From Nemertoderma westbladi (taxonomy: Eukaryota > Animalia > Xenacoelomorpha), in assembly GCA_032718475.1 (NCBI GenBank), contig JAUCBJ010008130.1:1-64000 (forward strand): a DNA stretch of 64,000 bases, in the 5' to 3' direction. The notes beneath the pieces were generated by a model. That model was not told where the DNA came from and made no database searches. It saw only the letters and a program-made list of their open reading frames with translations. The position numbers and the translations under genes are program-made. Position 1 is the stretch's first letter, and each line of letters opens with the position of its first letter. Positions 6,125-57,200 of this stretch are shown piece after piece.

Positions 6125-6380
6125 CTGAAATAAATTATATTAGATTGAGCAGATTAGAAAAAATAATAATCCATATATTCTATTATCTATCAATAATATA
6201 TTGGTAGTTCATTAAAATACCGAAAATAAAATGTATTTTAATTTGAAACTTTAAATGAAATTTTAATTTTTGAACCTATAATAAATCTGATCTTTATATT
6301 TAATTCTACCTTTACCTACTTTTACAGTACAATCAACTGAACTAAATACTGAATTAACTTATTTAAATTGATTTAATTGG

Positions 6381-10235: not shown

Positions 10236-10289
10236 GAAGAACTTATTGGACAAACCGATAGTTGGACTCGTAGGATGGTTATACTGCCA

Positions 10290-16200: not shown

Positions 16201-18530
16201 CGGAAATTCCGAAGCTAGACCAGTGGGAATAGAGACACCGAAGCTGGACCCATGGGGACGGAAATTCCGAAGCTAGACCAGTGGGAATAGAGACACCGAA
16301 GCTGGACCAGTGGGAATGGAGACACCGAAGCTGGACCCATGGGGACGGAAATTCCGAAGCTAGACCAGTGGGAATAGAGACACCGAAGCTGGACCAGTGG
16401 GAATGGAGACACCGAAGCTGGTCTCGTGGGGACGGAAATTCCGAAGCTAGACCAGTGGGAATAGAGACACCGAAGCTGGACCAGTGGGAATGGAGACACC
16501 GAAGCTGGACCAGTGGGAATGGAGACACCGAAGCTGGACCCATGGGGACGGAAATTCCGAAGCTAGACCAGTGGGAATAGAGACACCGAAGCTGGACCAG
16601 TGGGAATGGAGACACCGAAGCTGCCGCGGAAATTCCGAAGCTAGACCAGTGGGAATAGAGACACCGAAGCTGGTCTCGTGGGGACGGAGACACCGAAGCT
16701 AGACCAGTGGGAATAGAGACACCGAAGCTGGACCAGTGGGAATGGAGACACCGAAGCTAGACCAGTGGGAATAGAGACACCGAAGCTGCACCAGTGGGAA
16801 TGGAGACACCGAAGCTGGTCTCGTGGGGACGGAAATTCCGAAGCTAGACCAGTGGGAATAGAGACACCGAAGATGGACCAGTGGGAATGGAGACACCGAA
16901 GCTGGTCTCGTGGGGACGGAGACACCGAAGCTAGACCAGTGGGAATAGAGACACCGAAGCTGGACCAGTGGGAATGGAGACACCGAAGCTGGACCAGTGG
17001 GAATGGAGACACCGAAGCTGGTCTCGTGGGGACGGAAATTCCGAAGCTAGACCAGTGGGAATAGAGACACCGAAGCTGGACCAGTGGGAATGGAGACACC
17101 GAAGCTGGACCAGTGGGAATGGAGACACCGAAGCTAGACCAGTGGGAATAGAGACACCGAAGCTGGACCAGTGGGAATGGAGACACCGAAGATGGACCAG
17201 TGGGAATGGAGACACCGAAGCTGGTCTCGTGGGGACGGAGACACCGAAGCTAGACCAGTGGGAATAGAGACACCGAAGCTGGACCAGTGGGAATGGAGAC
17301 ACCGAAGATGGACCAGTGGGAATAGAGACACCAATGCTGGACCAGTGGGAATGGAGACACCGAAGCTGGACCCATGGGGACGGAAATTCCGAAGCTAGAC
17401 CAGTGGGAATAGAGACACCGAAGCTGGACCAGTGGGAATGGAGACACCAATGCTGGACCAGTGGGAATGGAGACACCGAAGCTGGACCCATGGGGACGGA
17501 AATTCCGAAGCTAGACCAGTGGGAATAGAGACACCGAAGCTGGACCAGTGGGAATGGAGACACCGAAGATGGACCAGTGGGAATGGAGACACCGAAGCTG
17601 GACCAGTGGGAATGGAGACACCGAAGCTGGACCAGTGGGAATGGAGACACCGAATGCTGGACCAGTGGGAATGGAGACACCGAAGCTGGACCAGTGGGAA
17701 TGGAGACACCGAAGCTGGACCAGTGGGAATGGAGGCACCGATGCTGGACCAGTGGGAATGGAGACACCGAAGCTGGACCCGTGGGGACGGAGACTCCGAA
17801 GCTAGACCAGTGGGAATAGAGACACCGAAGCTGGACCAGAGGGAATGGAGACACCGAAGATGGACCAGTGGGAATGGAGACACTGAAGCTGGACCAGTGG
17901 GAATGGAGACACCGGAGCTGGGCCAGTTGGAATGGAGACACCAATGTTGGACCAGTGGGAATGGAGACACAGAAGCTGGACCAGTGGGAATGGATACGCT
18001 GAAGCTGGACCAGCGGGAATGGAGGCACCGATGATGGACCAGTGGGAATGGAGACACCGAAGCTGGACTCGTGGGGACGGAGACTCCGAAGCTGGACCAG
18101 TGGGAATGGAGACACCGAAGCTGGACTCGTGGGGACGGAGACTCCGAAGCTAGACCAGTGGGAATAGAGACACCGAAGCTGGACTCGTGGGGACGGAGAC
18201 ACAGAAGCTGGACCAGTGGGAATGGATACGCTGAAGCTGGACCAGCGGGAATGGAGACACCGATGATGGACCAGTGGAAATCGAAACACAGAAGCTGGAC
18301 CAGTGGGAATGGAGACACCGAAGCGGGACCAGTGAGAATGGAGACACAGAAGCTGGACCAGTGGAAATGGAGACACCGAAGCAGGGCCAGTGGGAATTGA
18401 AACACCCTGAAGCTGGACCAGTAGGAATGGACCTACCAACAGTTGGACCCACGGGGATGGACATGCCGACAGTTGGAGCCGTGGGAACGGACACACTGTC
18501 AGCTGAAATCATGGGAATGGACACAGAGTT
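10290..18530. repeat. ~8.2-kb 29-bp satellite array with an 87-bp trimeric higher-order unit
   Basis: Monomer gaagctggaccagtgggaatggagacacc. Variants gaagctggacccatggggacggaaattcc and gaagctagaccagtgggaatagagacacc recur as a trimer. The array degenerates after ~17700. Confidence 0.97.
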
Positions 18531-22260: not shown

Positions 22261-22822
22261 ACTACTACTACTAGGATCGGCATGCTGCATTGCAGCTGCA
22301 TTTTTAAGAATGCTGTGCCGGCTTATCGACAAAATTGCACCTGCCACAACTCCCTATCACCCATGACATTTGCTAGATCATCCGCATCTTTAAGGCCAGT
22401 GTCCTTTAAGATGCGTCTCAAGAAAGTCATGGGCTGTCCACCATGCTTATTCACTCCATGAGGCTGCCAAAGTACAAGATTATGCACTGGCTGGTCCTCA
22501 CGGCGAAATGTCCTGCAAAGCGGAGGCGATTTTGTTCTAGTGTCAAGCTTGGGGGAACCAATGAGATACCTCCAATGTTATATAGTGTCTGGTTGGAGAT
22601 GTGTGCATTGTACTTGACACAATGAACCCGGCGTAGCATTCTTGTGAATGTGCCATCCAGAGATTTGGTGTCCTCAGCAGTTAGAGCCCAGCATGGACTC
22701 CCATAGAGAAGTACTGGAACTACTGCTGCTCTAAATAATCGGACCTTAAGTTTCCAATTAATTCTCGGTGACTTCCAAATCCTGGAAAGCCTATTCAAGG
22801 CTGCCCATGCCTTTCCCTTACA
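22261..22822 (-). mobile_element. 5'-truncated RTE-clade LINE with (TAG)n tail
   Basis: Encodes KLKVRLFRAAVVPVLLYGSPCW...RLRFAGH. Near-identical to 46473-46924. Tail actactactactag on +. Confidence 0.85.
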
Positions 22823-35163: not shown

Positions 35164-36230
35164 TATTATTTTTTATTTAAACATCCGGCTTACGCCCCGG
35201 CGGCTATTATTGGTAAAATGGTCTAGCAACATCAATTTAATTAAAATAACACACAAAATAAGAGCAACAAGATACAATAACAATACAATACGGCCGGTTT
35301 TGGCATGTAAGGCCCGAAAAGCAAATAGTATCATATCAGTTAAAATAACATGTATCATTTGGAGTATTATTGATTAAGTATTATTTATTATACTTATGCT
35401 TTTATAGATATTATTATTATTGATCAAGATTATAAAAGTCCAATACAACTATGTGGCGAGCTGCATGTGAGCCAGTGGTGCAACTCAGTATGGTACCAAT
35501 AAAAAAGAGTTTATACTGACTAGCAGGACTCAGTTCGGTGGCTTGAGATTTCCATGTCGATTCCGTATGGCCTTGAAACTGTATCTGGAGACACTCAGAG
35601 AAGACAAACTTGGTAAACCGAGGTGCCATGCGGAGACACCATAACGGAAGAATATCTGAGCACTAGACAAACCTGCAAGGTGCAGACAGATTAAATGATG
35701 AAAGAAAAAAAGAACCTTTCTATTAGGACAATTTAAGATGCTGTAGGTAAATGACGCAGTTTTGAAGTGTAGGAAATCTTCCAGGTTGATCATACCAAAG
35801 AGTTTACATAGAATTCCATTAGAAACATAGTTTCCTATTGCACATATAGTTCTCATTGCTTTATGAAGTTGTAGTGATATCTCTGCAATATTGGGTTTAT
35901 CAAGTTCCGAGCATCCATACAGTATTGACGGGAGGCACATCACCTTCCATATTTTAACAACAACTGCCCGCAACAACAATAACACTGTTAATGCAAAGAC
36001 CACGTGCCTCCATTCTGCTGACACAAGTCCAAATTTTACATTTTACAAACTGAGTCAAAGATTGCGACGTCATGGGAAAGGGCAAACCTAGATAGTTGCA
36101 ATCCTTCACAGAAACCAAAATATTGCTGTCTGTCCCATTTATGAATTCCAATGATTCCTCTCCATAGCTCGTTCTAGCTCCATTCAGGTATACGAAATGA
36201 GTCTTTTTTATGTTTACAAGCAACTTATGT
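35164..36230 (-). mobile_element. 3' part of an APE-RT LINE (RTEX/Proto2-like), split by the BEL element
   Basis: Reads HKLLVNIKKTHF...YLG...MCLPSILYGCSE, continuing the RT that breaks at 50718. A-rich aataa tail at ~35164-35180. Confidence 0.8.
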
Positions 36231-37719
36231 TGTCCGCGGTATTTCAACTTTTCATAACGCGAGTTGAATATTTTTTGTATTTATTTAAAATGATTATTCC
36301 GATATCACTACTGGGTGCGGGACCATGGGTTTTGGGCACACTCAATGAACTGGGGGCGATTTATGGGCGAACTTTGGGGCGTCTTACAGGGTACGGGACT
36401 CATTTCAGGTTTATAAGGGCCAGGGGTGGGAGGCAAAATTAAGCAGTATTCAGGTTTGCCTGAGTACTATTAGGCCTAGCCAACGTCCTGCTGCCTGTAG
36501 AGGTGGATTTGGTAACTCGCTAGGTCTAAAGGACAAGGACTGCCCTTAGCGGTCCCTGGCTAACAGCAGTTATTACAAGCCTGAAAAGGATATCGGAAAG
36601 TATGCTGCTTGTGTCAGGGATTTGCGACGGGAAACGACAGCCCCCTTAGCCAAGCCGTACTGGTTCTCGATGACCGATCCCTTCGGGGTTCGCGAGGGGT
36701 GGGATGGACACGCGAAAGGGCGGCCGACTAATAGAGGAAGGGTTTGACGAGGACTGCCCTTAGCGGTCTCTGGTCAACAGCAGTTATTACGAGCCTGAAA
36801 AGGACATCGGAAAGTCTGCTGCTTGTGCCAGGGATTTGCGACGGGAACCGACAACAGACCCCTTAGCCAAGCCGTACTGGTTCTCGATGATCGTTCCCTT
36901 CGGGGTTCGTGAGGGGTGGGATGGACACGCGATGGGGTCGAAAGACAGAGGACTGGACTCTACTGGCCTACCGACTGTCGGAGCAGTTTCTCGGCCGCCG
37001 AAGCGACTATGAGCCTGAATAAGGACTCGGAAAGCCTAGGTGGTTGGGTCTCTGCGATGAACCGACGGACCCCTAGCCAAGCCGTACTGGTTCTCAATGA
37101 TCGTTCCCTTCGGGGCTCGTGAGGGGTGGGACGGACACGCGAACGGGTCCACCGACACGACAGACTCCTAGCCAAGCCGTACTGGTTCTCGATGACTGAT
37201 CCCTTCGGGGTTCGAGAGGGGTGGTACGGATACGCGACAGAGTCTACCGACTGGACCGACCCTTAGCCAAGCCGTACTGGTTCTCGATGATCGATCCCTT
37301 CGGGGTTCAGGAGGGGTGGGATGGACACACGACAGGGTCGACCGACACCGACACTACGGCACCAAAACTAGGACCGAGGGAAAATCTGGGGAACATTAGT
37401 TAGGCTAAAATCTGAGCGAACATTGGGTAATTAAATAATTTACTGTAGGGATTTATATTGTCGTGTATTATTATTGTGAATAATTTGGTGTATATTGATT
37501 TGGGGAAGCCCAATTTATTCTCAATCAAGGTTCAACTGTAGGGAAGTTACATTAAAGCGTATATCCAACCAATGCAGCTTTTTCTCAACCGCAATCTTGC
37601 ATTTAAGAACATTCCTTCTCCACAATCAATATCCGGTGACTGGCCGGGATTCCGTGGTCTGTAAAATTCCGCCTCCAGCATCGGCGTTTTCCCCCATGGT
37701 GTCGGGAATAACGGCAACA
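36231..37719 (+). repeat. 5' LTR (1489 bp) with internal structured repeats
   Basis: Aligns end to end with 49228-50717. Confidence 0.95.
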
Positions 37720-38115
37720 AAATTGAGAATAAAACGCGGCCAACTTCAACTGGTGGAAGTTGGGAATCCTACAATACTCTTCAAACTCTCTCCGTGCTTA
37801 CCAGCACCCACTACGAGGAAACCCTGGTATTTGAGTTAAGACAAAGTCGTGGTCTAATAAATCAACAAACTCGATCTAACCAACTCGTAGTCGGCAGATC
37901 ACATATTTGGAGAGTTGTTAACAGGGAGTGGAAGTATCGATCACACCCATTGATATAATCCAAGTTGAGCCAGGAATCTGGCACTTCGAGGTTGAAGTAC
38001 AAGGAACGAACGTCGGACAATTCAGGATTACCTTTCGGGTGGTCCAGGCTGAGTACAATACCTACGAGGAACTATTTTACGACATCGCACATCTAGCTAT
38101 CAACGAGGCGCTACA

Positions 38116-41100
38116 ATGACAATGAATAACGTATCCGATACCGATGAGATGGACCACCACACAGATTTGGAAGCCGACGAGGTACCGAACGTCAAGAACA
38201 TGGCCCGTCGACTAGGTGCTCTCAAAGGCGGAGTCACTCGAGCGTATCAACGTATAGAGAAGCAACTCAAAGGAGTCGAAACCCCCCTCAACGAGATACA
38301 AACTCAGCTTCAGAGTATCCGAAGTATCTTACAACGATACGAGAGAATGATACAGGCGTACCAAGAACTCATCCCTGCCACTGACCAGGTAAACTACCCC
38401 AAATTGGAAGAACACGTTGCACGCCTAGACGAATTCCGCAAACAACACCGGAGGACCCTCAGCCTCGTGAGAGGCTACGAAGAACAGTACTACAAGAGAG
38501 CTGAAAGAACAGATGCAGAATCGGTGCGAACCTCCAGCACCAGGACAGCAGTACATCGAAAGAGAACAGGGTCCTCTAGAAATCAGCACTCCAGCGCTAG
38601 GAGCACGGTGTCCGGTTCAGCACACAGCTCTCAAGGGGGTCAGTCACTCCGAGACCAGCTACGAGAACAGAAAGCATTAGCCCTCAAAGCTCGGATGGAA
38701 GATGAGTACGTTCAACTGCGAACCGAGCAAGATATATTAGCCGCCAAAATGCAAAAACGGGAGGCCGAACAAGAGGTTGAACGGCAGGCCGAGCAACGTA
38801 GACAGGAGGCTGAACAACGTGAACGAGAGGCCAAACAGGAAGCTGAACAACGTGAACGAGAGGCCAGACAAGAGATCGAACAACGTAAATGGGAAGCAGA
38901 AATGCGTAAACAACACCCCGAGGCCCAAGCGATTCTCACCCACAAAAATGCGGATATTGCGAAACTCGCGGAATACGAAGCCGCACTTATAGAACGAGAT
39001 ATTCAACTATACGAGGACTGGGAAAGGGATATAGATCAGGAATATGAACCAATCCCGGTACCGGAATTAGAGAAGTCATTTACACCAACAGCGGCGAAAC
39101 TTCCGAAACCCGAGATCCCGCCTACCATACAGTCTACATTATCGGCACAAGCACCGGTGTTCCATCCCCCACCGGTTACGCTTAAAAATGAGGAACCATA
39201 TTTCCCATCCAACCCCACGGCAACGAGTGTACCCAAGTACGAGCCTGAAAGGGACTCGGAACGGGACGCCACTCCTCGATCCAACAACCCGTTTACATCC
39301 ACACCACAAACCCGTAGTCGCGTCATCATTAAAACTCCACCTATCATTGATCCATCGAGTATGGGAGAGAGTGCCAATAACTATAACCCTCCGAACCACT
39401 CCAGTTCGGACGACGTCAGCATTATCCGGGCATTGGAAAACCGCCTCTCCATGCCCAAGGTGGAGATCCGCACCTTCGAAGGAGATCCTGTCGATTACCT
39501 CAGATTCAAGAAACGGTTCTTTGCGCAGATTGGATCAACGGACATAGCCGACGCACAGAAACTGGTATATTTATCGCAATACCTGGGTGACAAACCACGC
39601 CGAATCATCGCTTGTTTTGAGGGAGGTTCTCATGAAGCATACAACGACGCATGGAAAACTCTAGACAAAAGATACGGAAATACCGGGACTATAATTAATA
39701 AAACTCTAGAGAAACTGATACGAGACGCGGGATCACTAGGGGACCCACAGAACATCCAGGAATACTCAGATTCCATGAAGGATGCCTACTACACTCTGAA
39801 ACCCTTAAATAAGGAGGACCAGGTGAACAACATTCTAAACCTCCAACAGATCGCCCGGAAGTTCCCCGGATGGCTGCAAAGTAAGTGGGCCTATAAATGC
39901 GTAGATCTCCGGCGCAGACATCCAGATCGAGATCCCAGCTTCCTCGAAATGTCGGCATTCCTGGACGATATCTCCGAAGCCATGAATGACTCGATGTTCT
40001 CGAAACAGAGTCTCGCCAAGTTGGACGCAATAGAGAGCAACTCCAGGAGTAAGACACCCACTCAGAGGCCGAGATTCCGCCCCCCTCCGGTGAGCACGAT
40101 GGCTTTCACCATGGCCGAGGATTCCGACGATGAAGACTACGAGGAACCGACATCAGCCGAGGAATGGGCGTGTTATCTCGTGAATTGGGCACCCGAGAGG
40201 GAAGGCATCACAAACCCCCTTCTCTATCTCTATTGTGGAGAGAAACATAAAGTTGAATTCTGCAGGAAGTTCCAGTTTGCCGAACTCGTCCCACGCTTCG
40301 AGGCGATTATGAAACACCGAGGATGCTTCCGGTGTCTTGGAACAGGTCACTACGTTCGGGATTGCGACCAAAGGTCGTGTTGTGCGGTCTGTAACGACCT
40401 ACGTCATCACACGCTCCTCCACATCCCCGCGAACTTTGACTTCACCACCCTCCCCTTTCGGATTGAAGCCAAGCGAAGAGGAGAAACGAACCACGTTTCT
40501 AAAGGAACCCGGACAACCCAACGGAGAGAAACCAACCCGTTTAAAACCTCCACCGATGCATCACAAGTGACAAATATCTCAGCCACGATCAACCTTATAA
40601 ATCGCCGTTACATGGTCTTCGCCAAAGTAATCCCAGGAAGAATTCAAGGGGTCGGCAAATCCTTGACGACGCTCGCGTTCCTTGATAACGGGTCGGACGG
40701 AACCATCATCGACCGGGATTTCCTCGAGCAACTCGGCCTAGACTATGAACCTTTCCTTCCGGAACACTTCAAACGGCCCATACAAACTATCACCGACCAC
40801 AGAGAGGTAGAATCCGGGGAGGTGCAACTCCAGATGGAAGGGGTAATGAAGGGCTACGAGATGGTTAAGCTGACCATCAAGAACGCCTTAGTACACACAG
40901 ACCTCCGAGTGCGGTTCCGACAATCAGCCGAGTACGCCCCCCTCATACAGCTGGACCGAGACGACGTGGATCTAAGGTGCCCGCCGTTGGATGTAAACCG
41001 CATCACCCTACTGATCGGACTTGATACACCGGAACTACACATACCCACCGGAGACGTCGCCCGATCTATAAAGCAGGATGACGGCTTTTACGCTGAACGA

Positions 41101-43815
41101 ACAATAATGGGATGGACACTCTGCGGCATCAAGGAAGAGACTACCGACACCTATACATACCTTCCTAAATGTCAGATTAAAGAAAATGCAACATCCGTGG
41201 GTTATTGCTCAGCTACAGACCTCGATGAGGATTTATTTCTTGAGACCGAAAAAACCCAGCAAGAGATGACTAAATACTTTAATCTAGAGATCCAAGAGTT
41301 CGCTGAAAAGGATGAAAACCCGTCCGAGGAGGATCAATATTGTATGGATGTCCTGGACCAGGCCACGTTCAATGACGGACACTGGTGTTCACCCATGTTA
41401 TGGAAGGACCCAAGCAAACCAATGGCAAACAACGCCAACATGGCCCTTAGGCGACTTAAGGGGATTCTACGCCGGCTGAATGACCAACCCAAGATAAAGG
41501 AGAAATATAACACCGTAATCAAAGGATATCTCGAGGATGGATTAGCAGAAATGGTACCACGGAATGAACTGCAAGGGGGTAAAAGAACATATTATCTTCC
41601 AACCCACTATGTGGTAGAAGCCCGGAAGGGCGGTAAAATCCGAGTAGTTAATGATGCCGCTGCTATGTACCAAGGCGAATCCCTGAACAGTCAGCTTTAT
41701 ACAGGGCCCAACATATATAGTACACTTATTGGCGTATTTATCAGGTTCAGGGAAAACCGGATAGCATTCACCTGCGACATCAAATCCATGTTTCACCAGG
41801 TTCGTACGCTACCAAGAGACTCAGACTGTCTACGTATCCTATGGACGGATAAAACACTAACTCAACAGGAGATTAGTCAACTTACAATGAAGGATGTAGA
41901 CGTAATGCGTATGATCGTCAGGATCTTTGGCGCTAAGGACTCGCCGGTAGCATGTAGTGACATGCTGAAGAAGACAGCAACCATGTGCGAAAACGAGTTC
42001 CCTCCAACCGTCATAGAAACCATCCGACGATGCTTCTACGTGGACAATGGATGCGCCGGCGCAGATAATGTGGACGAGGCATATCGGCTAGCAATGGGGA
42101 TGGTAGAATGTTTAAAGAAAGGAGGTTTCCCACTCGTGAAGTTCAGATCCCACGACAAAAAACTTATGGAAAAGTTTCCGGAGGACATCCGACTGGACAA
42201 CAACAAAATGTATTCGGAGGATGTGGAACACCGTGTACTCGGTATTGAATGGGACATAGAATCAGACGAATTCATTTTCAAATATAAACCCCTACCCAAG
42301 CCTATGACGAAAAGGCGATGTTTGGCGATAAAAAGCGCAATCTTTGACCCACTAAATTTCATATCTCCGGTAACCTTGGCCGGAATGAACCTGATTAAGG
42401 AAATGTGGATAGAAGGACTGGGATGGGATGAAGAACTCCCCCCACACCTCAGTGTCAAATGGAGAAAATGGACGGAACAGCTCGAACACCTACATCTTAT
42501 GCGGATCCCTCGACCGTTCTTCCTCGATAAACTACCCACCGATATCTTCCAGCTCCATACCTTCTCGGATGCTTCGAATACCGGAATCGGCATAGTCACC
42601 TTCTTACGAAGACTAAGCAGCGATGGAAACGGCGATACGAGCTTTTTATTTTCTAAAGCTAAAACAGTATCCGGGGAATTCATAGCAACGATTCCAAGAC
42701 TCGAGCTACAGGCTGCAGTTTGGGCAGTGAGGCAGAACCGCATGGTCATGCGGAACCTACGAATCCCCATAGAATCTCAACACTTCTGGGTCGATTCGAG
42801 TATCGTTCTCTACTATCTCCACTCTCCATCCCGACGTCACACTACGTTTGTAGCGAACCGAGCCACAGAGATAAAACAGTGTACCGGCCGAGAACAGTGG
42901 CACCACGTAAACGGGAAAGAAAATCCAGCGGACTTATCAAGCCGAGGCGCCACCCCAAAACAACTCGGTAAAAGTAAACTCTGGCTTACAGGCCCAGAAT
43001 TCCTACAGCAGCCACAATTAACATGGAGTACCCGATTCGACCCCGAACTCGATAGCGGAAAATACTCCGAGGACGACAAAGAGATCCGTAAAGTCCATAG
43101 AAGCAACACAGTGGAAATTTATAGTTGTCTGACTGAGCCTGCAAAGGACTCGGGCAGGCACTATAACGTTGCGACGATCATTCAGCCAGCGGCGTCTTTA
43201 CATCTGTTAATCGAGCGAACTTCATCAATGAGACGGCTCATCCACCACGTTATAACCCTTCGCAACTTCCTACGGTGGAAAGACAACAAGCCAATAGTTC
43301 ATCGGAGTATACAAGAACTCATTATCGCGGAGAAGTGTATCATTGGATATGTCCAGAGAGAAAGTTTCCCCGATGAGTGGGAACAACTCAGTGCGGGCAA
43401 GACCTTGAAAACGGACAGCCCAGTCTACCAACTGAGACCAATGATGGGAGAGGACGGACTGATCCGACTGAATACCCGGATGGCAAACGCCCCGGTCGAA
43501 TATGAGGTTAAATACCTGGCGCTTCTGCCCGGAACTTCGACACTAGCCAAGCTATTAATTCAACAATGTCATGAGAAAAACCATCACACAGGACAGAACT
43601 GGATTATAGCTAATATAAGACAAAGATATTGGATCACCCACATCCAGCCACTGATCCGGAAAGTGTTGAAACGTTGCTTTACCTGCAGAAGATATCTAGC
43701 GCCACCACTCACACAAAAGATGGCCGACTTACCAGCCACCCATCTACAGCCCGATTCCCCACCGTTCTACGTCACCGGAGTGGACTGTTTCGGACCGTTT
43801 ACGGTCATCGAATGA
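38116..43815 (+). pseudogene. BEL/Pao gag-pol polyprotein (DUF1759-like gag, Zn knuckle, aspartic protease, RT, Pao RNase H, integrase Zn finger), inactivated
   Basis: FLDNGS, RVVNDAA, DIKSMFHQV, FYVDN (YVDD expected), FSDAS, TIPRLEL, NPADLSSRG. Premature TGA at 43813. Confidence 0.92.
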
Positions 43816-44640
43816 CGATCCAACATCAAATGCTGGGGAGCCATTTTCACCTGCCTTAGGTCTAGAGCAATCTACCTAGACATTGTGGTAAACCTTACGC
43901 AACACGCATTCATCAACGCTCTGCGTATGTTCGTGGCGAACAATGGGACATGTCGTCACATGTACTCCGATAATGGTACAAACTTTGTGGGAGGAGAAAG
44001 ATAACTTAGAGAGGCGATCGAGGAATGGTTTACCGATAACACCGCATCCCAAGTCTGGAAGGAACACCAGATACAGTGGCATTTCCAGACACCATTAGAG
44101 AAACTGATCGACTTAGTAAAACGATCCATAAGCGTCGCACTAGGAGACACCCGGGTAACCCTTGACACCCTCCGCACAACATTCTGCGAGATCACGGCTA
44201 CCCTGAACAACCGGCCCATTGTCCCTATCCGCGACGACCCCACAGACCTGGAGCCCCTCACCCCTAACCACCTACTGGGGAGACCCAAAATTCATGTTCT
44301 CCCAGAGACAATGTTTCCGGATCCCAACGATATCGCGAGACATACAAATTGGAAGAAGGCCCAAGCATTGGCAGCGCATTGGTGGAGAATCTGGGCCCAG
44401 GAGTACCTCATAACCCTCCAGACCAGGAGGAAGTGGAACAACACCTACAGGAACGTCGCAGTTGGCGACATGGTACTAGTGAAAGAAGATCTTAAAGACC
44501 GCATGTGTCCACTGGCCTGTGGCGCAAGTTGTGACAATACACCCGAGCAAAGATGGACTTGCGAGGACTGTGACGATACGAACGGCAAAGGGCCACTACC
44601 AACGCCCTATCCAGAGGCTGTGCCTTCTTGAAGGCAATGA
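43816..44640 (+). pseudogene. Disrupted integrase core and C-terminal DUF5641-like region
   Basis: WGAIFTC, YSDNGTNFVG, LNNRP, LTPNHLL, WAQEYL..LQTRRKW, RPIQRLCLL, spread across stops and frameshifts. Confidence 0.85.
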
Positions 44641-44994
44641 CAGCGGTGACTCTACGAGAGGTGATAAGTTCCCTACTCCGGATCCTGCTGCAGACATTGG
44701 TGACAATGCTAAACCCATGTAAACCCTTCTCATCATGTTGACAAACTCTTTTAAACTGTGATTTATCGACAATGATAATGGACCCCCCTTAAACCAACTG
44801 TAACCACGCAATGGTATTTGTGTTTCCTCGTGTGTTATGTGGAGTCCAGCGTCACCCTGCAGATGTTTCGACTGATGCAGGTTCGTTTATGTATTGTTTA
44901 CCCTGATTTTGGTCATCGGGACCAACGATATTGGATTATTGGAAATGGTAAAGATTTGAAGTGGAATTCATTGTATCCATTGTAGTATGTTATG

Positions 44995-45420
44995 TTGTCC
45001 GTTGCGTGCGCAGTTCGGGGCGTAGGTGGTGTAACTAGTCCAGCTGTAGATCCCGGATTGCCGCGCAACACCCCCTCTATCCCGTTATTCTGGTGGGTCC
45101 ATGGTGCATCCACATGACTTCGACGATAGAGGGTTTTATGTTTCTCAGTCGCGTTATTCTGGTGGGACCATTGCGTGGATTTTGGGGCGTAGGCGGTGTA
45201 ACTAGTCCAGCTGTAGATCCCAGAATGTTGCGTAACCCCATCCCACATGACTTCGTCGACTGAGCTTTATGTTGTTGGGAGTGTTATTCTGGTGGGTCCC
45301 TGGTGCATTCCACGTGACTTCACTTCCAGCGTCTTCATTGTCCGTTATGTGTGCAGTTTGGGGCGTAGGCGGTGTAACTAGCCCAGCTGTAGATCCCAGA
45401 TTGCCGCGTAACACCCCTTC
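44995..45420. repeat. Shuffled ~170-bp direct repeats between pol and the accessory gene
   Basis: ggggcgtagg(c/t)ggtgtaactag(t/c)ccagctgtagatccc occurs 3 times (~45017, 45184, 45360); gttattctggtggg occurs 3 times. Confidence 0.8.
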
Positions 45421-45983
45421 CATGACAAAGATTTCCCAAAGAAGATGATTGAATGTAGTTGGAAATGATGAAAAGAATCAGACAACCTTACTATAAACCG
45501 AATGGTGACACGTATGATGATGAAAATGAAATGATGCGCACCCTGGTGCTGCGCTTATAACAAATGATGATAGCCTGGGGGCTATAACCCCAATGATAAT
45601 GTGGAAATAAATGAAAATGTGAAATAAATATGATGAAATGTGGAACTAAATGATGAAATGTGTTGAAATAAATGAAATGTGAAATGAAATAATAATGAGA
45701 AATGAAAAAAGACAAAAGACAAAAAAAAGTACAAAATGTCTAAAGAAAAGAATTGGAAAAAAAAGGACATAAAAAGTCATAAAAACTGGTTGGATATTAA
45801 TGTATAGCTATAGTAACTGTAAATGCTGAATGTATTAGCAATAAGATGATGGATGCCTATATAGCAATGTTATTTCATAAACTGAATTAAAAATAAACTG
45901 AATTATTCTGCAATCACTATAGTTTCAGACTTTCTGGATTTATAATTAACTGATATAATTTTGCAACGGACATAATTGTAAAT

Positions 45984-48900
45984 ATGGACCCAAATCGCCA
46001 AATTATCGGCGAATTACGTAATACGATAGATCTACTGGAATATCCACAACCTGGATCCCCTAACTTTGATACAAATTGGAGCACCCTGATAAACGAGAAT
46101 GTGCGAGTCGTCAAATTCTGCGGGCGAGAGGGACCGGATTCCCGGAATCTACGAGCCCTCCGGTTGTCCGATGCTAGTACGAGACTGAAAAGAACTCGGA
46201 ACGCAAAGGCTACCGGAGGGGATGAGTTGTCATATTGGGAAACGTTTCGGCAAAGCGTCTACAGATCCCGATGTTTGATATACGACAACGAGGGAAATGC
46301 GACGCCCACCTCGAAAGCGATGACGTTGGCGCGATGTCAAAGTTTCGTCGACGACAAGAGTACGTACCTCACACACTGGGGAAACCTGTCGGAGTGTACG
46401 GCGACGCTATGAGAGGAACGTATATCGATCATCCAGAATCGCGACGACTACCAGGAAAAGTACGGGGCGAGGAGTTCCAGTACTCCTCTATGGGAGTCCA
46501 TGCTGGGCTCTAACTGCTGAGGACACCAAATCTCTGGATGGCACATTCACAAGAATGCTACGCCGGGTTCATTGTGTCAAGTACAATGCACACATCTCCA
46601 ACCAGACACTATATAACATTGGAGGTGTCTCATTGATTCCCCCAAGCTTGACACTAGAACAAAATCGCCTCCGCTTTGCAGGACATTGCTTTCGCCGTGA
46701 GGACCAGCCAGTGCATAATCTTGTACTTTGGCAGCCTCATGGAGTGAATAAGCATGGTGGACAGCCCATGACTTTCTTGAGACGCATCTTAAAGGACACT
46801 GGCCTTAAAGATGCGCATGATCTAGCAAATGTCATGGGTGATAGGGAGTTGTGGCGGTGCAATTTTGTTGACAAGCCGGCACAGCATTCTTAAAAATGCA
46901 GCTGCAATGCAGCATGCCGATCCTAGTACGGGGCGAAAGAATACGGTCGATCCTTGGTCGTCGTCCTCGGAACCCTGGACGGTTTGGTATTGGTGTGTCG
47001 AATATTCCCGACACCCAGACAGGAAGTGCAGGCAGCCGGAGCGATCTGGGTACTACCTCCGGAAATCCAAAGGATCCTCTTCGACTTCGACGTCATTAAA
47101 ATCGGGTCGGATATAAAGGCGGACGTCCGGAACGACTACGCGAACGCTCCTTTAGGAAGAGATCGACGAGACGACCTCAACGCCCTTAGCCATTGCGTCG
47201 ACACTCAAACGCTATTAGCCTGGTTACGATTCGCCGAGTTCATGCGAGGATTCCGAGAGGTGAGACCGACGAAATCCGGGATCGGCTACCTCGCTGTGCT
47301 AAACGGCGGCATCGACTTCAAACCTCAGAAACTCCGGGATTATAATAAAAAATATGGTGGATACCCGGGATTAGAAATAAAGAGCGAGCGAGAGGGTCGA
47401 TGAAGGACCTGGAGAGAAAGTGGACGATACACCAAAGGTGGGAGAATCCGGATCGACGGAACTACATCTACATCGTTATGGAATCATACACCGTCGCTAA
47501 GTTTATCTGTAAAACCCTCGATAACCTCATTACGGCGGTTCCTCTTTCCTTCGTCGACTACGACTGGAACGAGGTTATAAACCACGTGTTCAAAGCGGTC
47601 GAGAATATTACACCAGGAGAGACGAAAACACTCGCCGTTATCGATTCCTGGGACGAGAACGGACCTTACAACATCCCTACGATTACCGATCTTCTCGGTG
47701 CTGAGGAGCCTCTGATTTCCTCGGAAGGGGAAGAGCTATGTCTACATGAGGGCGTTCTACTGTCTACCCCAAAGCGACCACTCGAACCGGAAGCTGCATA
47801 CGAACCGGCCGCCAAACGGGTTGCCTCGGCCGAACCTGCGACGGAAGCAGGTGCTTCCACCCCACTCGGCTCCGGTAGCTCTGCGAGGGAGTTAATCACC
47901 ACCTCCGCGTTGAGCGACTTCGGCGATATATGCCAAAGGTTATCCCCATATCCTTTCCCGGGTGGCGAAGACTGGTCTTCGGAGATTCCGAGTACCAGCA
48001 ACCAACGGTCCCGCTCAGCGATACTGGTTGAAAAGGGTCCCAGCGCTGCGCCGACTCCCGACGATCTCTTCGGAATCCCTCCGTCGAAAACCCCGGCACC
48101 TCTTCACCGACCAGCGGTGGTAACTATACCCTCCGTTCCTCAGGATCCTATGCGACTAACCCGTTGGTACGCCGAGCAAACCGAATGGATCCACCGCCAG
48201 AAATGGTCGTCCGAGTTGAGACCGGCAGGACATAAAGAAGGTTATCGGAGCGAGGACCTACTGCACAAAAGCCCAGCCTTCCGCGGGCTACCAGCCACCG
48301 CGAATATTCAGAAGAGTGACCGACGACTCGAGTATTACGTCGGCGTCCCGATTCCGATATTCCCCGGTCGAGAGATGCAGTTGGAGGTGTGCGGTAACTG
48401 CGGTTCAGAGCAGTGCCCACGCGGTAGAAGAAATCGGGTTACCGATTCGTGCCTCCAGCTCCTCGGGATACGTTATTGCCCATACTGCGCGACATCGGGC
48501 CACGACGTTTCCGTCTGTCCGATCCTATATAAACTCTGCACTACGTGCGGTTTCCGTGGACATTCCGCTAGCCCCCGCTGCTATATCAAATGTCCTACCA
48601 AAGATGTTACCGCTATGGGAAATATGGTCATGTTTGAAACATACGCAAACAGCCACATAAGGACCAAAGCGCGGAGAAACGCTGGGAATATCGCGCAGGA
48701 GATGGCGTGCGGGTATTTTTCCTTCCCGGAGCGCCTACATACGACGGCAATGCTACCTTTCCATTACGTGGATCTGTTGCTTAGTGCCGGATTATTCGGC
48801 CCATTCGAAGTCCTTAGACGCTTATACTCATATAAAGAGGAGTTCGGTGACGGAGAGTGGTTCCTTGAGGCTCGCAACTCCGAGTTGGAACGACGAACCG

Positions 48901-49049
48901 ATATGATCCCATTGCCATCGAAAGGAAGAGCCGCCAGGAGACAAGCCGAAGCGTTGCTCACGATGGATGTTGACGCTCCCCTACCAGCTCTAGCGATCGA
49001 CGAGAGTCGACGGGCGAAGAGGAGAAAGGCGTATCAGAGAAAGAAATAG
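45984..49049 (+). pseudogene. Accessory gene of the BEL element: DEDDy 3'-5' exonuclease-like domain, Pro/Ser-rich linker, CCHC zinc knuckles (split by an RTE insertion, one TGA and one frame change)
   Basis: ExoI-like CLIYDNEG (46284-46292). ExoII-like LPPEIQRILFDFDVIKIGSDIKAD. ExoIII-like NYIYIVMESY. Knuckles CPYCATSGHDVSVC and CTTCGFRGHSASPRC. Confidence 0.7.
46471..46924 (+). mobile_element. 5'-truncated RTE LINE inserted in the accessory gene, 12-bp TSD
   Basis: TSD agtacggggcga at 46459-46470 and 46925-46936; near-identical to the copy at 22261-22822. Confidence 0.93.
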
Positions 49050-49227
49050 TGGACCGGGATACTCTAGGAACATTTATTGAACATTTATTTTTATACATAT
49101 ACATATATGAACTCTAGGCCAAATTAATCAAGACTATGCAATATTAAAAATTTGGGTTTTTTTATATGGAAATGACCTACGCAAACTCAATCTACCGATA
49201 GACCTCACGAAGGTCATTGGGGGGGAC

Positions 49228-50717
49228 TGTTCGCGGTATTTCAACTTTTCATAATGCGAGTTGAATATTTTTTGTATTTATTTAAAATGATTATTCCAAT
49301 ATCACTACTGGGTGCAGGACTATGGGTTTTGGGCACACTCAATGAACTGGGGGCGATTTATGGGCGAACATTGGGGCGACTTACAGGGTACGGGACTCAT
49401 TTCAGGTTTATAAGGGCCAGGGGTGGGAGGCAAAATTAAGCAGTATTCAGGTTTGCCTGAGTACTATTAGGCCTAGCCAACTTCCTGCTGCCTGTAGAGG
49501 TGGATTTGGTAACTCGCTAGGTCTAAAGGACAATGACTGCCCTTAGCAGTCCCTGGCCAACAGCAGTTAATACGAGCCTGAAAAGGAAATCGGAAAGTCT
49601 GCTGCTTGTGTCAGGGATTTGCGACGGAAAACGACAGCCCCCTTAGCCAAGCCGTACTGGTTCTCGATGACTGATCCCTTCGGGGTTCGCGAGGGGTGGG
49701 ACGGACACGCGAAAGGGCGGCCAACTAACAGAGGAAGGGTTTGACGAGGACTGCCCTTAGCGGTCTCTGGTCAACAGCAGTTATTACGAGCCTGAAAAGG
49801 ACATCGGAAAGTCTGCTGCTTGTGCCAGGGATTAGCGACGGGAACCGACGACAGACCCCTTAGCCAAGCCGTACTGGTTCTCGATGATCGTTCCCTTCGG
49901 GGTTCGTGAGGGGTGGGACGGACACGCGACGGGGTCGAAAGACAGAGGACTGGACTCTACTGGCCTACCGACTGTTCGGAGCAGTTTCTCGGCTGCCGAA
50001 GCAACTACGAGCCTGAATAAGGACTCGGAAAGCCTAGGTGGTTGGGTCTCTGCAATGAACCGACGGACCCCTAGCCAAGCCGTACTGGTTCTCAATGATC
50101 GTTCCCTTCGGGGCTTGTGAGGGGTGGGACGGACACACGAACGGGTCCACCGACACGACAGACTCCTAGCCAAGCCGTACTGGTTCTCGATGACCGATCC
50201 CTTCGGGGTTCGAGAGGGGTGGTACGGATACGCGACAGAGTCTACCGACTGGACCGACCCTTAGCCAAGCCGTACTGGTTCTCGATGATCGATCCCTTCG
50301 GGGTTCGGGAGGGGTGGGACGGACACGCGACAGGGTCGACCGACACCGACACTACGGCACCAAGACTAGGACCGAGGGAAAATCTGGGGAACATTAGTTA
50401 GGCTAAAATCTGAGCGAACAGTGGGTAATTAAATAATTTACTGTAGGGATTTATATTGTCGTGTATTATTATTGTGAATAATTTGGTGTATATTGATTTG
50501 GGGAAGCCCAATTTATTCTCAATCAAGGTTCAACTGTAGGGAAGTTACATTAAAGCGTATATCCAACCAATGCAGCTTTTTCTCAACCGCAATCTTGCAT
50601 TTAAGAACATTCCTTCTCCACAATCAATATCCGGTGACTGGCCGGGATTCCGTGGTCTGTAAAATTCCGCCTCCAGCATCGGCGTTTTCCCCCATGGTGT
50701 CGGGAATAACGGCAACA
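49228..50717 (+). repeat. 3' LTR (1490 bp), preceded by a polypurine tract
   Basis: ggggggga c|tgttcgcggt...ggcaaca|tatgt. Confidence 0.95.
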
Positions 50718-53700
50718 TATGTCTTTCAAAGTAATTGCAGCATAGGGCCAAAAGTTTCTCTGCATCAGACTTCATGTTTGCTGCAAGAATGATATCATCA
50801 CCATAGCTCACTCCACTGAAAGATTCTGCCTTTATGTGCACACCAAGACCACTGTTATCAATCTCCTTAAAAAAACTAGACATATAGAAATTAAAAAGAA
50901 TTGGGGATAACATCCCGCCTTGTCTTACACCTCTCTCTAAGGGGAATGCTTGACATATCCGTGTTCTAGATGCCAAGAAAGCTGAAGCTGAGCAGTAATG
51001 GTTTCTTAGTGTTTCCAATAGGTTGTGTTCAGTGTTAGCATCCTCTAATTTCCTAATTAACATTGTGTAGTCAATGGTATCAAAAGCTGATGACAAGTCT
51101 AATGATACTATATACATTGATGAACCCTTTTTTGTGAATTCATTTACTAAGTTGTTGACCAGTGCATACGTCATTTCTGTATTGGTTTTTTGTTTATAAC
51201 CCGTCTGCAAGTCATGAGAGTCCAATGGCAATTCAGGGAGTATAAGCATTTCCCAAAGTTGGCGATAACAGCTACAATTGCAATTCCATGATAGCTCTTA
51301 GTTGAAAATTTATCCAGATTCCTGCCCTTATATAATGGCATTAACAGAGACATGCTCAACTTCTTTGGACATTAACAGGAGGCTCTCATAGAATTGAATA
51401 TGTATGCTAAGGCGCTGCAGAGCCCATCAGAGATTCCAAAAAATAAATGTTCTGACTTTAACCAGAAGCAATCAGCAGCTTTTTTCCTGTTTAAATTGCG
51501 GATACCACTTACAATGCATTCTGTGGACAGGATTGATGTGTCGTTTAATGTCTTCGCTTCATGAGACGCTATATTTTCCAACGACTTACCATTTAAGGTG
51601 CTATCCTTGTATGTATCCTCGCAGTGCTGCTTCAGCTTCCTGAACATTTCATCTGTCATTTCCTCCTGGGGAGCACGGTTCTTGGTAAGCTTCCAGAACT
51701 TTACATCATCATCTCTGCAGGACTCTACCAACTCATAATATGATCAGAATACTCAAATTCTACTGAGCTTCATAGCAACTTGATTGTATCTCCTTGTGGC
51801 AGCCCAATAACCTATGTAGGAGACATTAGACGGATCCTTTATACTGCCTTGATTGATCCAGATCTCCTTTGCCCTGTCAACGATACATTTTAGTTTACCA
51901 AGACTGGCATTGTCAGCATGAGATTTCCATCTAGAGTTTACAGATCTTGGTTTCCTATTATCAATAAAGCTGGTTGGAATGTAAACATCGGATGTTTTCC
52001 TCAGGACAGCAATGACTTTATCCAATACAATCTCTGCATCGAGTGGATTTGTAGAATAATTTTTATAGGGCTTGATAAAGGATGATAGCTTATCTGATAC
52101 AACCTTGCGATACTGTTCAAGCTGTTTAGTGGTTGCTTTACTGAAGTATACAATTTTTCTCTTATATGTGCATGTGCAATGAGATGATGCGGTCCAATTA
52201 TCATTCTGTCGTTTGGCTGAAAGACTCAGTGTTGTTCTAACTGGAGTGTAGTCTGAGAGATTACTTGGATCCAATCCAAAGACCATGCTAGATGTTATAT
52301 TTGGAGCAATATCTGGTGATAAAAGAATGTGGTCAATGTAAGAAGATCTTTGCACAACACCATTTGATCTAAAGAAAAAAGTTGAATGTAGTTCATTTGG
52401 AGCAAACCAAACCACCAAACCATGGGGTTATGCTACATTTTGAACAAAGATGTCATCAAAACGGGAGGTTGCAGTGTTGACGTTTCCACTGTCACTACTC
52501 AGACGACCAAGGCTACCATTGATGTCTCCTAAAACAACTACTGGGATGTTTTGAGTTCTATCATCGATCAATGTTGCCAGTCTCACACACTGTTGAATGT
52601 AAGAATCCTTATCAGATGGAAGGTTGCAGTCAGCTGGCATGTAGACAGCCATAAGCGCGATATCCATAATAGTTGGGTGATTCTTTAGTTATACAGCAAT
52701 GATGAGGTCATTAGTTAGTTGTGACTGGGGTGGAATACTGCATCAAATCATCCTGCATTAACAACATGATGCCACCCTGAGGCCGGCCATTATAAAAAGG
52801 GTCTTTCATGGCATCAGCAATTGTTGTGAGAATTTTATAACCACTAAAGGGTTTGTCCTGATTCAAATAAACCCCTGTATCAAGAGGACCTAGCCAGGTC
52901 TCTTGAAGAGCAAGTATGTCGGGCTTATGTCTATCAATTAAGGTCTCGATGTACAGTCTGTTATGCACAAAACCCTTGCAATTTAATGTAAAAATGACTA
53001 TGTCTTCAACCTTTTTGCACTTTGCTGTTCCATCTTTGGAAAAGCTTGATTGTGTTTTGGGAGTCCTATTAATAGTGTTTGCCTGATAGTGTTTGCTTTA
53101 TGGAGTGTTTGTTGCAGGAACAGTGACTTTCTAAAAACGGTTTGTATTGTAGCATGGAGTTTCTAGAAGTACTCGCGTGGTACAGGTGAAACTTCTTTGA
53201 GGGGTGACTTGAATCCATTATTGTTATAGTTCTTTTGTAATGAATCTTTTAGTAGATGCTGATTGAAATGTATCTGGCTATTGCATGATGTAATTGCTTG
53301 AGTGCCCCTCGATTGATGCCACTGTTGATCAGGACTTAGATACTGGCCTGTGTTGTTCTTGAATTAATGATGCCCTTGAATTGTTCTTGTTGGATAAGGT
53401 TTTGATTATTGGTTAGATTGGTCGTATTATTGATGTTGTGTTGGATGTTGTCCAGTGATTGGTGATGATGGCCTTGTTGTCATTGAGAAGACTGAGAGTA
53501 ATGTTGAAAGTTGTTCAAAGGCATTCCCCTATGCACTTGATGGCTGACATAATTGTTAATGGTAGATGGGCCATGCCAGTTGTTTTTTCTTTCCCTGTCA
53601 GGGTCATGTGCAAACCCATGTCTCGTTTCATGAAGAACCTGTGGTGGAAATGATTTAGTGGAAAGTTTATAGTCCTTTTGATTCGTGTGCCTATTCGAGG

Positions 53701-53748: not shown

Positions 53749-54270
53749 TTGTATAATAACTAATAATCACAAACCCCGTCCTCTTATAATATATAACTCT
53801 GTAGTAGTCAGTAGTAGTAGTAGTAATAGTAGTAGTAGTAGTAGTAGTAGAAGTAGTAAGTAATAGTAAAGGAGATCGGTTTAAACCAAAGTGATAAAGT
53901 AACATTATTATATAACATAATCATATAGACAAAGTAGAATAAGATACAGATTCATAATTATTTTATCAAACTCATGTACTACTTACTTCAATGTGCCAAT
54001 TGTAATAATAATTAAACATATTATTCAGATTAATCTGCGTTTGGCCCTATAAGATATTATACTGACGTATTTTATATTATTATATCCATCCGAGTAAACA
54101 AGAAGTGAAGTAAATGTTTATTATTATAGTTTTAGAAATTGAATGATATACCCAAGATAGTGAAATAGATAATATACCAGAAATTGCGAGTGAACCCAAA
54201 AGTGAAAACTATCTCGTTGAAAACGACAACGTGTAGCCGAATTAACGAACTTGAATAGATTTGATCTCCA

Positions 54271-57200
54271 ATGGCTAGCGCCAACCGAACGCCATCAACG
54301 AACCATCCATCAGTGGAAACGAGCTCAGACCTCATTGACATAAGGGATGAGCCCAGACGAGTATCAGTCGTGGATGGCAGGATCGAGTCGGGCCGAGAAC
54401 TCGCCCGAACCCCGAGAACGAACCCAACACAAGCGGAGGGCGCCTGGCAACCAACAACGAGCCCAGGCGGTGTGGCACGCTCAATTCCTGGGGCTGCTAG
54501 AGCAAGCATCGGCGCTCGCTTACGCACTAGCAGCTTGGTGGGAACTGGGCAGGGGCCACCCACTCAACCAGAACGAGCTGTCCTCCCAACTCACGAACCT
54601 GAACCGGCCAATATTCGACACGAACCTGAAAGAACCTCGACACAGACAACACGACCCAAAGACCCCCAGATCCAACGATCATCACGATCACAACGAAGTG
54701 CTGTTCTGATTGACCCCCAACAACCAGAGATCCTTAAACGACGATCTCAACGAGCAGAACTGACTCTGTTTGGAACTGTTGAGAACCCAACTGGTGAACT
54801 GCCGGTGGAACCGGAGCTAAGTATACTTTTAAATAAAATAACGGTCTACATAGATCATTTACGTGCGTGCGGAGAGGAACAAAGGGCTGTTGAGATTGAA
54901 GACCGGGTCAAAGCCCAGTGTCAATCTCGAGAGACCCGTTCCAATCCAAACGTTAGGAGGGAACCCAGAGGAACCCAGAGTGAAGATCTGAGGGAGGGAG
55001 ACCCGACCCCAAGCATTATCACCGAGGTGCCACGCGTTGATCCAGAGGATTCTGTGTCCCAGGTGACACCAGACTCCATCTGGGAGAACGTCCCTAGGCA
55101 GAATGATCGTGCTTCAGGGGTCGGATCTATACACTCATCCACGATCAATCGAATGAGAACGAATGCAGGGATTGAACAAGCAAGAATGGAGCTAGCGGAT
55201 GGCATGAGAGAACAAGAGCGTGAGTTAGAGAGAGAAAATAAAAGGAGAGTAAGTGAACGTGAACTGGAAAGAATAGAAAAAGAGGAACGTGAGGAACGTG
55301 AGAAAAGGGAATGTGACAAAAGGGAACGAGAGAGAAGGGAACGAGTACAAAAGATAGCAGATGAGATGGAACGGGATAAAAGGGAAGGTGAGATTGAAAG
55401 GGAACGGGCAAGGGCCAAGAGGGAAATGGTTCGGCTAAATGCAGAACAGTGCATATTACGTATGGAAGAGGAGGCATCTCAACTTGGAATTTCCCAGAGG
55501 GGAAATAAAACCAAGTGTGATTCAATGAATATACTAACTACTGTAGAACCCAATAACCTAACTACTGTAGAACCCAATAACCGAGAAATTGAAAGTAACC
55601 TTCTAGCCATAGAAACACCCCGTTATCCATCACCCGTACGTAGAATATCAGCGCGTACAGTAAAGAAACCTGTTATTACATCAAAACCCGAATATTGTAT
55701 TAGTAGCAGAACACCAGCAATGACAGGGGGCTTTAATAGCACGTTAGGCAACTCTGCTTCAAAGGGCCCCAGAGGGGCTAAGAACCAAACATATAATTTG
55801 GAAAGCCCAACAAATACTGTAAATGCTGCAGTTACCAGCTGTATACATAGAACAGGGCACCATATCGAAACCCCTGTGTCAATCATCCAGTACACTGGTG
55901 ACGAAATGTCAGAACAAGCAGGCATGAATCATAACATTCAGACTGAGGTACCGGTATCGGATTGCAGCAGTAGGCCTAATAGACGGCTGCATTCGACCGG
56001 TCTACCGGTAACACATTCTGCGCCAGTTTGCGGTACACCAGATTACAGCTGCAGTGATCAGCTACATGCGACTGGTCCGCCGCTATCCAATTCTATAGGC
56101 CTACCTGTACGCAGTACTCCAGACTGCACAGCATGCAGTAGGCAGAATCCCGATTATTATTATTTACCGGTATCTAGCCAGAACCATAGGCCTAATGCTA
56201 ATAGTAATACTCAAATACCGGTATCTGAAAGTTTAGATAGGCATAATCTTAATGTACCGGTATCTTATGATTATAGGCCAAGTTATGTAGGCTTACCTAA
56301 CAGCCTGATGCATACCGGTACTGTTAATCATACATGTAGCCCTGCTGATGTAGGTCAAAATCAACATCAGTCTATAGACCACCCTATACCATCCGAATTT
56401 AATCAAAATATCGGTATCCAATATGAACCAAGGTATGGTTATGGGACACCATTGAGCAGTACCGGTAACCCAAGCCATTTAAACCCCAGAGCCGAGGAAT
56501 TTCTACCCGTCCCCATAGGCGAAGTAGGAATGCCAGATGGCCAATATAAATACAAAACCCGTAGCGAAGTGAGTGAAACCCCACAGCAACGGGCAGTAAC
56601 CTTTTCAAATCAAATAAATAATGGACCCGGATTATCAAAAATACCGAGTCTAGCGTACCCATCTATAGGAGCGCAAAGACAACAGAATAAAAATAATACC
56701 GCTGGCTACAATTACACAGGAGAAGCAGCCCCACGTGGACCCCCTTATGTACAAGCAGGAAGGGTCCCTCAATGTTATCAGAGCGGAGGAGAGAGTGAGT
56801 TAAGTCATATGGCGGCAATAACAGACGCCATAAAAGCCAAGCTAGAACTGCCACAGGCTAAACCGTTTACCTTCAGTGGAGAATACCCGGAAGAATATAT
56901 TCAGTTTCGACAGCTATATACCACTGAAATTCTACTGAAACATAACCTGTCAGAAGCACAGAAGATGACCTACCTGATGGTTTACACAACTGGCAAAGCA
57001 AAGGAAGTTGTTAGACAATATGCAGGCCTAACAGATGGTTTGCGACTAGCATGGGAAGCCATTGAAAAGCGATATGGAAATCCTTCACGTATAATGCAGG
57101 CAACAATCAACAAATTGGTCACTAACAAACAAATCACCACGACTGCCGAGTTTAGGGACTTTACAGAAAGGGTAAACAAAGCCCTGGTTGCCTTGAAGGA

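Follow-up and report, generated by a model that had tools for sequence, protein, structure and literature searches.

The window (the whole stretch of DNA that was analysed, 64,000 nt) holds on its plus strand a BEL/Pao LTR retrotransposon with the following parts (TSD, target-site duplication; PPT, polypurine tract).

36226..36230, plus strand: left copy of the TSD, TATGT, 5 bp
36231..50717, plus strand: LTR retrotransposon of the BEL/Pao type, 14.5 kb long, complete but defective, from a high-copy family (LTR pair, TSD, Pfam domains)
36231..37719, plus strand: 5' LTR, 1489 bp, TGT...ACA
36532..37353, plus strand: U3 internal repeats with 95- and 214-bp periods, predicted to form a long hairpin with a C-UUCG-G loop
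38053..43815, plus strand: gag-pol ORF of 1920 codons (Pfam: DUF1759, Pao Peptidase_A17, integrase H2C2)
44005..44631, plus strand: detached C-terminal piece of the integrase (Pfam: DUF5641)
45984..47403, plus strand: broken accessory ORF, its C-terminal part 3'-5' exonuclease-like (PF01612, DEDDy type)
46459..46936, no strand assigned: non-LTR insertion of ~460 bp with a 12-bp duplication at its ends; a 97% identical inverted copy lies at 22269-22724
47349..49049, plus strand: open accessory ORF, 566 aa, with a Cys/His-rich middle part and no Pfam family above threshold
49219..49227, plus strand: PPT (G7) and a 2-nt spacer
49228..50717, plus strand: 3' LTR, TGT...ACA, with a second copy of the predicted primer segment at 50512-50523
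50718..50722, plus strand: right copy of the TSD, TATGT, 5 bp

The two LTRs are 97.5% identical and appear as one long direct repeat when the window is compared with itself. With TGT...ACA at the ends of the LTR pair and TATGT at both flanks, the insertion is complete and its ends are exactly defined; the end of the 5' LTR at 37719, where the sequence-only reading had put it, is thus fixed independently of any primer-binding site (PBS).

The order gag-PR-RT-RH-IN with DUF1759, Peptidase_A17, H2C2 and DUF5641 is that of BEL/Pao (Belpaoviridae), as are the TG..CA LTR ends, the short TSD and the PPT; the Pol is of BEL/Pao type and not the Ty3/gypsy chromovirus Pol of the Tf1/sushi group. We found 1,352 homologues with this domain set (identity up to 40%), and the nearest named proteins come from molluscs, corals, echinoderms and fish. 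The copy itself is defective: gag-pol terminates at a stop within the integrase, and the RT has an altered catalytic motif, of a form that the other 109 aligned sequences all lack. The family is present in many copies, with deep contig cover in three of the four DNA runs compared.

Judged from its letters, the copy has aged in place, as the CpG decay of its two LTRs shows. The 37 differences between the LTRs fall without exception within 36234-37423; 22 of them are at CpG sites, with 11 and 10 decay events in the respective copies. The last 296 nt (37424-37719 versus 50422-50717) are identical where ~6.7 differences were expected (longest-run test, 178/20,000); assembly smoothing, partial gene conversion or a promoter free of methylation may lie behind this identity. 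The repeats in U3 (counterpart in the 3' LTR at 49529-50351) have a unit of ~80 nt, five copies of which were aligned per LTR; the predicted hairpin is rich in G-U pairs, and among its 22 pairs one is changed on both sides and three on one side. Rfam gave no match for this unit, only weak hits below threshold and none of these within the LTR or leader of the element. The repeat hairpin would sit in the 3' UTR of the genomic RNA.

The two accessory ORFs lie downstream of pol. The exonuclease-like piece has Atlas features of 0.91-0.93, and 27 of its 30 hits are with the PF01612 family; searches of Pfam and PDB sequences gave no hit for it, and the N-terminal piece had no usable hit. This ORF is interrupted by a stop as well as by the non-LTR insertion. 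The 566-aa ORF, for which 97 related loci (described below) yielded no homologue, is still open despite the broken pol.

Several other features were seen in the window. The BEL element appears to have inserted into a decayed non-LTR element that bears an RT and lies on the minus strand (50545-53000). A second BEL/Pao element has an uninterrupted ORF of 2615 aa (54265-62112) and is sister to the first in the tree described below (support 0.997, long branches); no 5' LTR was detected for it in the window, and a G-run followed by TGT near 63273 may begin its 3' LTR (about 63265-64000). Further upstream we observed an inverted repeat pair of 770 bp (92%; 1-752 and 1639-2403), a Tectonin-domain ORF on the minus strand (5325-6134) and an 8.1-kb array of a 29-bp unit in ~280 copies (10289-18431), which opens many long ORFs.

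The primer-binding site and its complement in the LTR

The features around the end of the 5' LTR are these:

37491..37496, plus strand: weak TATA-like TATATT, a second one being at 37454; not diagnostic of a start
37510..37516, plus strand: Inr-like CCAATTT (YYANWYY, A at 37512), a candidate start 2-3 nt upstream of the primer segment
37514..37525, plus strand: predicted self-primer segment, with a conserved core of 11 nt at 37515-37525
37551..37556, plus strand: ATTAAA, a hexamer resembling a poly(A) signal; it lies 25 nt past the end of the primer, which places the primer in R
37720..37721, plus strand: AA, spacer of 2 nt that separates the LTR end from the PBS; the PPT and the 3' LTR are likewise 2 nt apart (AC)
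37722..37733, plus strand: non-tRNA PBS, complementary to 37514-37525
37740..37763, plus strand: leader hairpin of 8 bp with TGG in its loop

There is no TGG-type PBS after the LTR, in agreement with the sequence-only reading, and the 18-nt site for tRNA-Arg or tRNA-Gly by which the ICTV describes BEL/Pao is absent; the first TGG (37751) is found 31 nt past the LTR, inside the loop of the hairpin 37740-47/37756-63, which had also been noticed and has a pairing probability of 0.91-0.99. No tRNA gene was found in the 64-kb window. What stands at the site instead, 2 nt past the terminal CA, matches 37514-37525 exactly in reverse complement; the match occurs once in the window and extends on neither side.

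When the whole LTR was dinucleotide-shuffled 20,000 times, a match of at least 12 nt starting 0-5 nt past the LTR arose 9 times; with only its last 350 nt shuffled, it arose 11 times in 20,000. Along the window, a 12-nt complement in the LTR exists for 9 of ~61,000 non-LTR positions, the PBS site included. The integrase of retroviruses trims two bases from each end; if it does so here, gaps of 2 nt on both the PBS and the PPT side are as expected. The in-silico criterion for self-priming of Neumann et al. asks for at least 10 bp of complementarity starting 0-5 bp past the LTR (excerpt of PMC6317226); the element has 12 nt at offset 2.

Where transcription begins is less directly read from the letters. 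The TATATT at 37491, ~23 nt before the 12-mer, is where it had been said to be; as a pointer to a start at 37514 it fails. The canonical metazoan distance from TATA to start is ~30 nt, which from 37491 leads to 37521-23, inside the 12-mer (a point against self-priming), and the TATATT at 37454 is equally weak. The Inr-like CCAATTT fits the predicted start better, with +1 likely at A37512. In folding, the core of the duplex between primer segment and PBS has a probability of ~1 for RNAs starting at 37500-37515, ~0.35 with a start at 37485 and zero with a start at 37455 or 37398. This loss with longer leaders is a second point against self-priming: the start would have to lie in a narrow window, or the upstream stretch would have to be removed. 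The leader segments as such fold no better than shuffles (z -0.79; z 0.12).

By eye, an arm at 37473-37488 is complementary to 37510-37525 at 14 of 16 positions and could mask the primer in the 3' LTR copy; the local fold does not reach significance (z -1.18), and in the predicted structure other pairs form.

Pairing in related loci and within the family

With an alignment of 26 polyproteins as query we collected 97 related loci, 79 from metagenomes (best 80 of 505) and 18 from MAGs. The latter (L080-L097) are contigs in bacterial MAGs that carry animal-type BEL/Pao, evidently mis-binned host DNA. Among 454 pattern matches in IMG/VR there was no relative. The contig of L056 repeats itself every 6,138 bp (LTR plus interior), which is what a tandem array or a one-LTR circle would give.

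The LTR end could be fixed by the direct repeat alone in 13 of the 97 loci; the other 84, among them L095, whose repeat falls short of the LTR end, were left out of the junction test. None of the 13 relatives has a TGG within 8 nt of the LTR end. In ten, the PBS pairs over 10-15 nt with the exon-exon junction of a GT..AG intron in the element's own LTR, each pairing being reached by 0-5 of 300 shuffles. These introns span 71-388 nt, and nine of the ten have a GTRAG donor, although any GT was permitted. L050 pairs contiguously over 10 nt (5 of 300 shuffles); L083 and L087 gave no significant pairing between PBS and LTR, nor did a nested element with 331-bp LTRs in L092, which was counted as an additional row. 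Since several of the positives (L006/L013/L034) are sister families, they amount to about eight independent cases. In most of the relatives the longest match to the LTR starts directly behind a pyrimidine-rich AG; a reading of this AG as an Inr start was dropped when GTAAG donors were found to complete the pairing, and we take such sites as splice acceptors.

The letters of the PBS vary from family to family, tracking each family's own LTR. With its own LTR the PBS of the element has a score of 12, with 14 others no more than 10; in this cross-pair control some pairs reach 10-11 nt by chance. A scan with the LTR end taken as unknown, in which 44 of 99 sequences were skipped for too little upstream DNA and the approximate window missed several known ends, found at least 11 nt in 15 of 55 upstream regions versus 2 of 55 coding controls; the 15 comprise 12 of junction type, L057 with contiguous pairing, the BEL element itself and one palindrome artefact. 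Of 21 preselected positives, 20 have a predicted primer whose last two bases are A and a pyrimidine, as is the case for the element, and in 20 the primer is followed by a poly(A) hexamer within 0-97 nt. The helix ends 0-4 nt from the LTR end in all positives.

In a tree of RT/RNase H (110 sequences), the element nests among the junction-type families, on a long branch; built without named BEL/Pao references and without a tRNA-primed outgroup, this tree names no clade and orders no events. The contiguous primer of the element's family probably arose by intron loss, the direction of change being our assumption.

Within the family, we compared contigs of four DNA runs (X1, X2 and X4 among them) over the PBS and LTR region. 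In X2 neither the PBS nor 37515-37525 has any listed change of at least 1%; with 16 listed changes in 331 nt, the absence of change at these 23 positions is by itself not significant. At position 37514, C accounts for 69% of the depth of X2 (21,942 of 31,696 units), and the conserved duplex is therefore one of 11 bp. A variant of the LTR site (C37522 to T, T37514 to A, one extra base) occurs in seven contigs of X1 and eight of X2, and one contig of X4 (91% identical) has exactly matching changes in a PBS-like segment just upstream of 37735. Put together, they turn C-G into U-A and U-A into A-U and add one pair, giving a perfect 13-bp duplex, whose halves come from short contigs of different samples and are unphased, not one molecule. 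Covariation of the two 12-mers, which the sequence-only reading had proposed as a check, is thus seen across families; inside the family the changes match, in unphased form.

Minor copies of the family (in X1, X2 and X4) have a leader 38-39 nt longer, with a second copy of the PBS at the foot of a 12-bp hairpin (37718-37735); their depth is ~120-150, versus tens of thousands. The PBS-like segment of X4 may be the second, downstream PBS copy of this long-leader type, and the 12-bp hairpin is possibly a switch that competes with the primer.

Self-priming and its alternatives

We consider it likely, with a probability of about 0.8, that the element primes reverse transcription with RNA of its own R region, in the manner of Tf1, instead of a host tRNA. 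Three observations support self-priming: the register of the PBS, the matched changes within the family, and the pairing of PBS and LTR in relatives with different letters. Of what had been proposed along with it, the TATA pointer and the role of the nuclease fell away, and a primer made of the first bases of the mRNA, as in Tf1, is not a general rule, most relatives forming it across a splice junction.

The steps are inferred from the anatomy of the element and from analogy. Transcription would begin just upstream of the primer segment, most likely near A37512, and the 5' end of the RNA would fold onto the PBS across a loop of ~195 nt. Next would come cleavage of the RNA behind U37525, for which the RNase H of the element is the likeliest enzyme, after the example of Tf1; the freed piece of 11-14 nt would prime minus-strand synthesis. 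The RT would copy AA, U5 and R; strand transfer would be possible through what is left of R before the poly(A) site, some 45 nt, and the integrase would trim the 2-nt ends. In most relatives the primer would be assembled by splicing the intron out of the LTR.

A variant of self-priming, which we regard as unlikely, has a longer leader: transcription would start near TTAGT at 37396, the AT-rich stretch 37427-37508 would be spliced out and a nuclease, such as the encoded exonuclease, would trim the primer end; alternatively, the 12-mer would be the 3' tail of an intron ending at 37529. Relatives have introns of 71-426 nt at the same place of the LTR, a donor-like GTAAT at 37427 precedes an AG at 37508 by 82 nt, and a longer leader, if unspliced, blocks the duplex. 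Against this, the 390 nt upstream of the 12-mer contain no GTRAG donor, a pyrimidine-rich YAG acceptor is absent from 37310-37678, and the best GT..AG junction of the element pairs only 4-6 nt, fewer than the contiguous 12. By the same three observations we reject a splice-junction primer, of the kind seen in relatives, for the element, which pairs contiguously; 37427-37508, ending 5 nt before the segment, is a weak candidate for an intron. The CCGCG with GT at the LTR start, matching five further bases of the PBS, we put down to chance; it would need a first exon of 8 nt at the LTR edge.

The suggestion that the nuclease helps to process the primer is unsupported, and the pairing does not require it: no exonuclease homologue was detected in the 97 loci (tblastn, of low sensitivity), and in seven of 12 relatives checked the interior is taken up almost entirely by a single long ORF (frames are broken in the remaining five, whose interiors are no longer than those of the seven). 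On present evidence we take the exonuclease gene for an unrelated passenger.

Somewhat less probable than a longer leader is a purely structural helix between R and leader, serving packaging, dimerisation or translation control, with priming elsewhere by another, for instance host, RNA. Matched changes speak for a helix and not for priming as such, a TGG does lie 31 nt downstream in a hairpin loop, and the second PBS copy within the 12-bp hairpin of minor copies suggests structural switching. Yet the helix ends exactly where the 3' end of a primer must lie, at the LTR edge in every positive; priming 31 nt downstream would miss the observed LTR end and the 2-nt spacer that matches the PPT side; and no alternative TGG site directly follows the LTR in any of the 13 relatives.

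Still less do we favour a PBS that binds a tRNA half, a mitochondrial tRNA or another small RNA of the host, the LTR match being secondary or accidental. Half-tRNA priming exists in copia lineages (excerpt of PMC6317226), the ICTV gives tRNA-Arg and tRNA-Gly as primers of BEL/Pao (PMC8742986), and the match is AT-rich; however, the PBS differs between families while tracking the LTR or junction of each, as a fixed host primer would not, the chance of the match is ~5e-4, and a subfamily has matched changes. Chance complementarity in a decayed PBS, a doubt raised by the sequence-only reading over the AT-rich match and fed further by the age and mutations of the copy and by the many elements screened in a genome scan, is very improbable and largely refuted by the shuffles (9/20,000), by the like pairing of 11 of 13 relatives and by X2, where the lack of PBS changes of at least 1% makes this PBS the normal state of the family.

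For the wider group, we lean towards a large branch of BEL/Pao in aquatic animals that has left tRNA priming, most families having a primer that the host spliceosome builds from an intron in the LTR and the present one an intron-less, contiguous form. If true, self-priming in BEL/Pao would mean that priming independent of tRNA has either arisen once more or been retained from ancient times, and that it extends to a third LTR superfamily. PBS filters based on tRNAs would then be expected to miss such elements, as they do, and by inference the elements would escape host control by tRNA fragments. The relatives would make the start of reverse transcription depend on splicing of the 5' LTR copy, and the 3' copy has to stay unspliced for the intron to be kept; the high-copy intron-less family offers a natural comparison for gain or loss of this coupling.

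Comparison with known systems

In the open-access literature we found no report of self-priming or splice-built primers in BEL/Pao; subscription papers, Repbase, GyDB and supplements may mention them. The available portions of PMC554778, PMC3118150 and PMC6238403 have no passage on PBS, tRNA or priming, that of PMC12440569 has no term for PBS, primer or self-priming, and those of PMC3601003, PMC5443660 and PMC8220671 add nothing on BEL priming. Self-priming as a category is already known; what is new is its probable occurrence in BEL/Pao, where a splice-built form would exist next to a contiguous one.

The element agrees with Belpaoviridae as described by the ICTV in domain content and order, TG..CA LTR ends and the PPT. 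The same source gives an 18-nt PBS, LTRs of 0.2-1.2 kb and genomes of 4.2-10 kb, and calls the replication of BEL/Pao 'poorly understood' (PMC8742986); here we have no tRNA PBS, LTRs of 1.49 kb, a total of 14.5 kb and two accessory ORFs.

An extra 3'-5' exonuclease-like ORF after pol (DEDDy ORF3) is also present in the Juno/Vesta LTR retrotransposons of bdelloid rotifers and in Athena (main text of PMC5408684, in part). These belong to other retroelement groups and the likeness is one of family resemblance; the terms 'PBS' and 'self-priming' are absent from that main text.

Outside Tf1/sushi, self-priming has been predicted for the plant Ty1/copia TAR lineage, Houba and Osr-1 (excerpt of PMC6317226). 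The TAR lineage resembles the element in LTR-PBS complementarity by the same in-silico criterion; it differs in being plant copia, and the excerpt mentions no primer intron.

The closest parallel in mechanism is the Tf1 group of Ty3/gypsy: Tf1 and Tf2 of Schizosaccharomyces pombe, Tj1 of S. japonicus, Tf1/sushi elements and Tcn1 likewise have no tRNA PBS, and 11 nt of their own RNA form the complement of the PBS (excerpts of PMC7175516 and PMC4600332). The RNase H of Tf1 makes its cut between bases 11 and 12, which gives a primer of 11 nt (same excerpts), the length of the conserved 11-bp duplex of our element. The Tf1 primer is the 5' end of the RNA; in the element this is predicted, from start sites placed by motif and folding. 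The element, moreover, is of a different superfamily, and most of its relatives build the segment across a splice junction.
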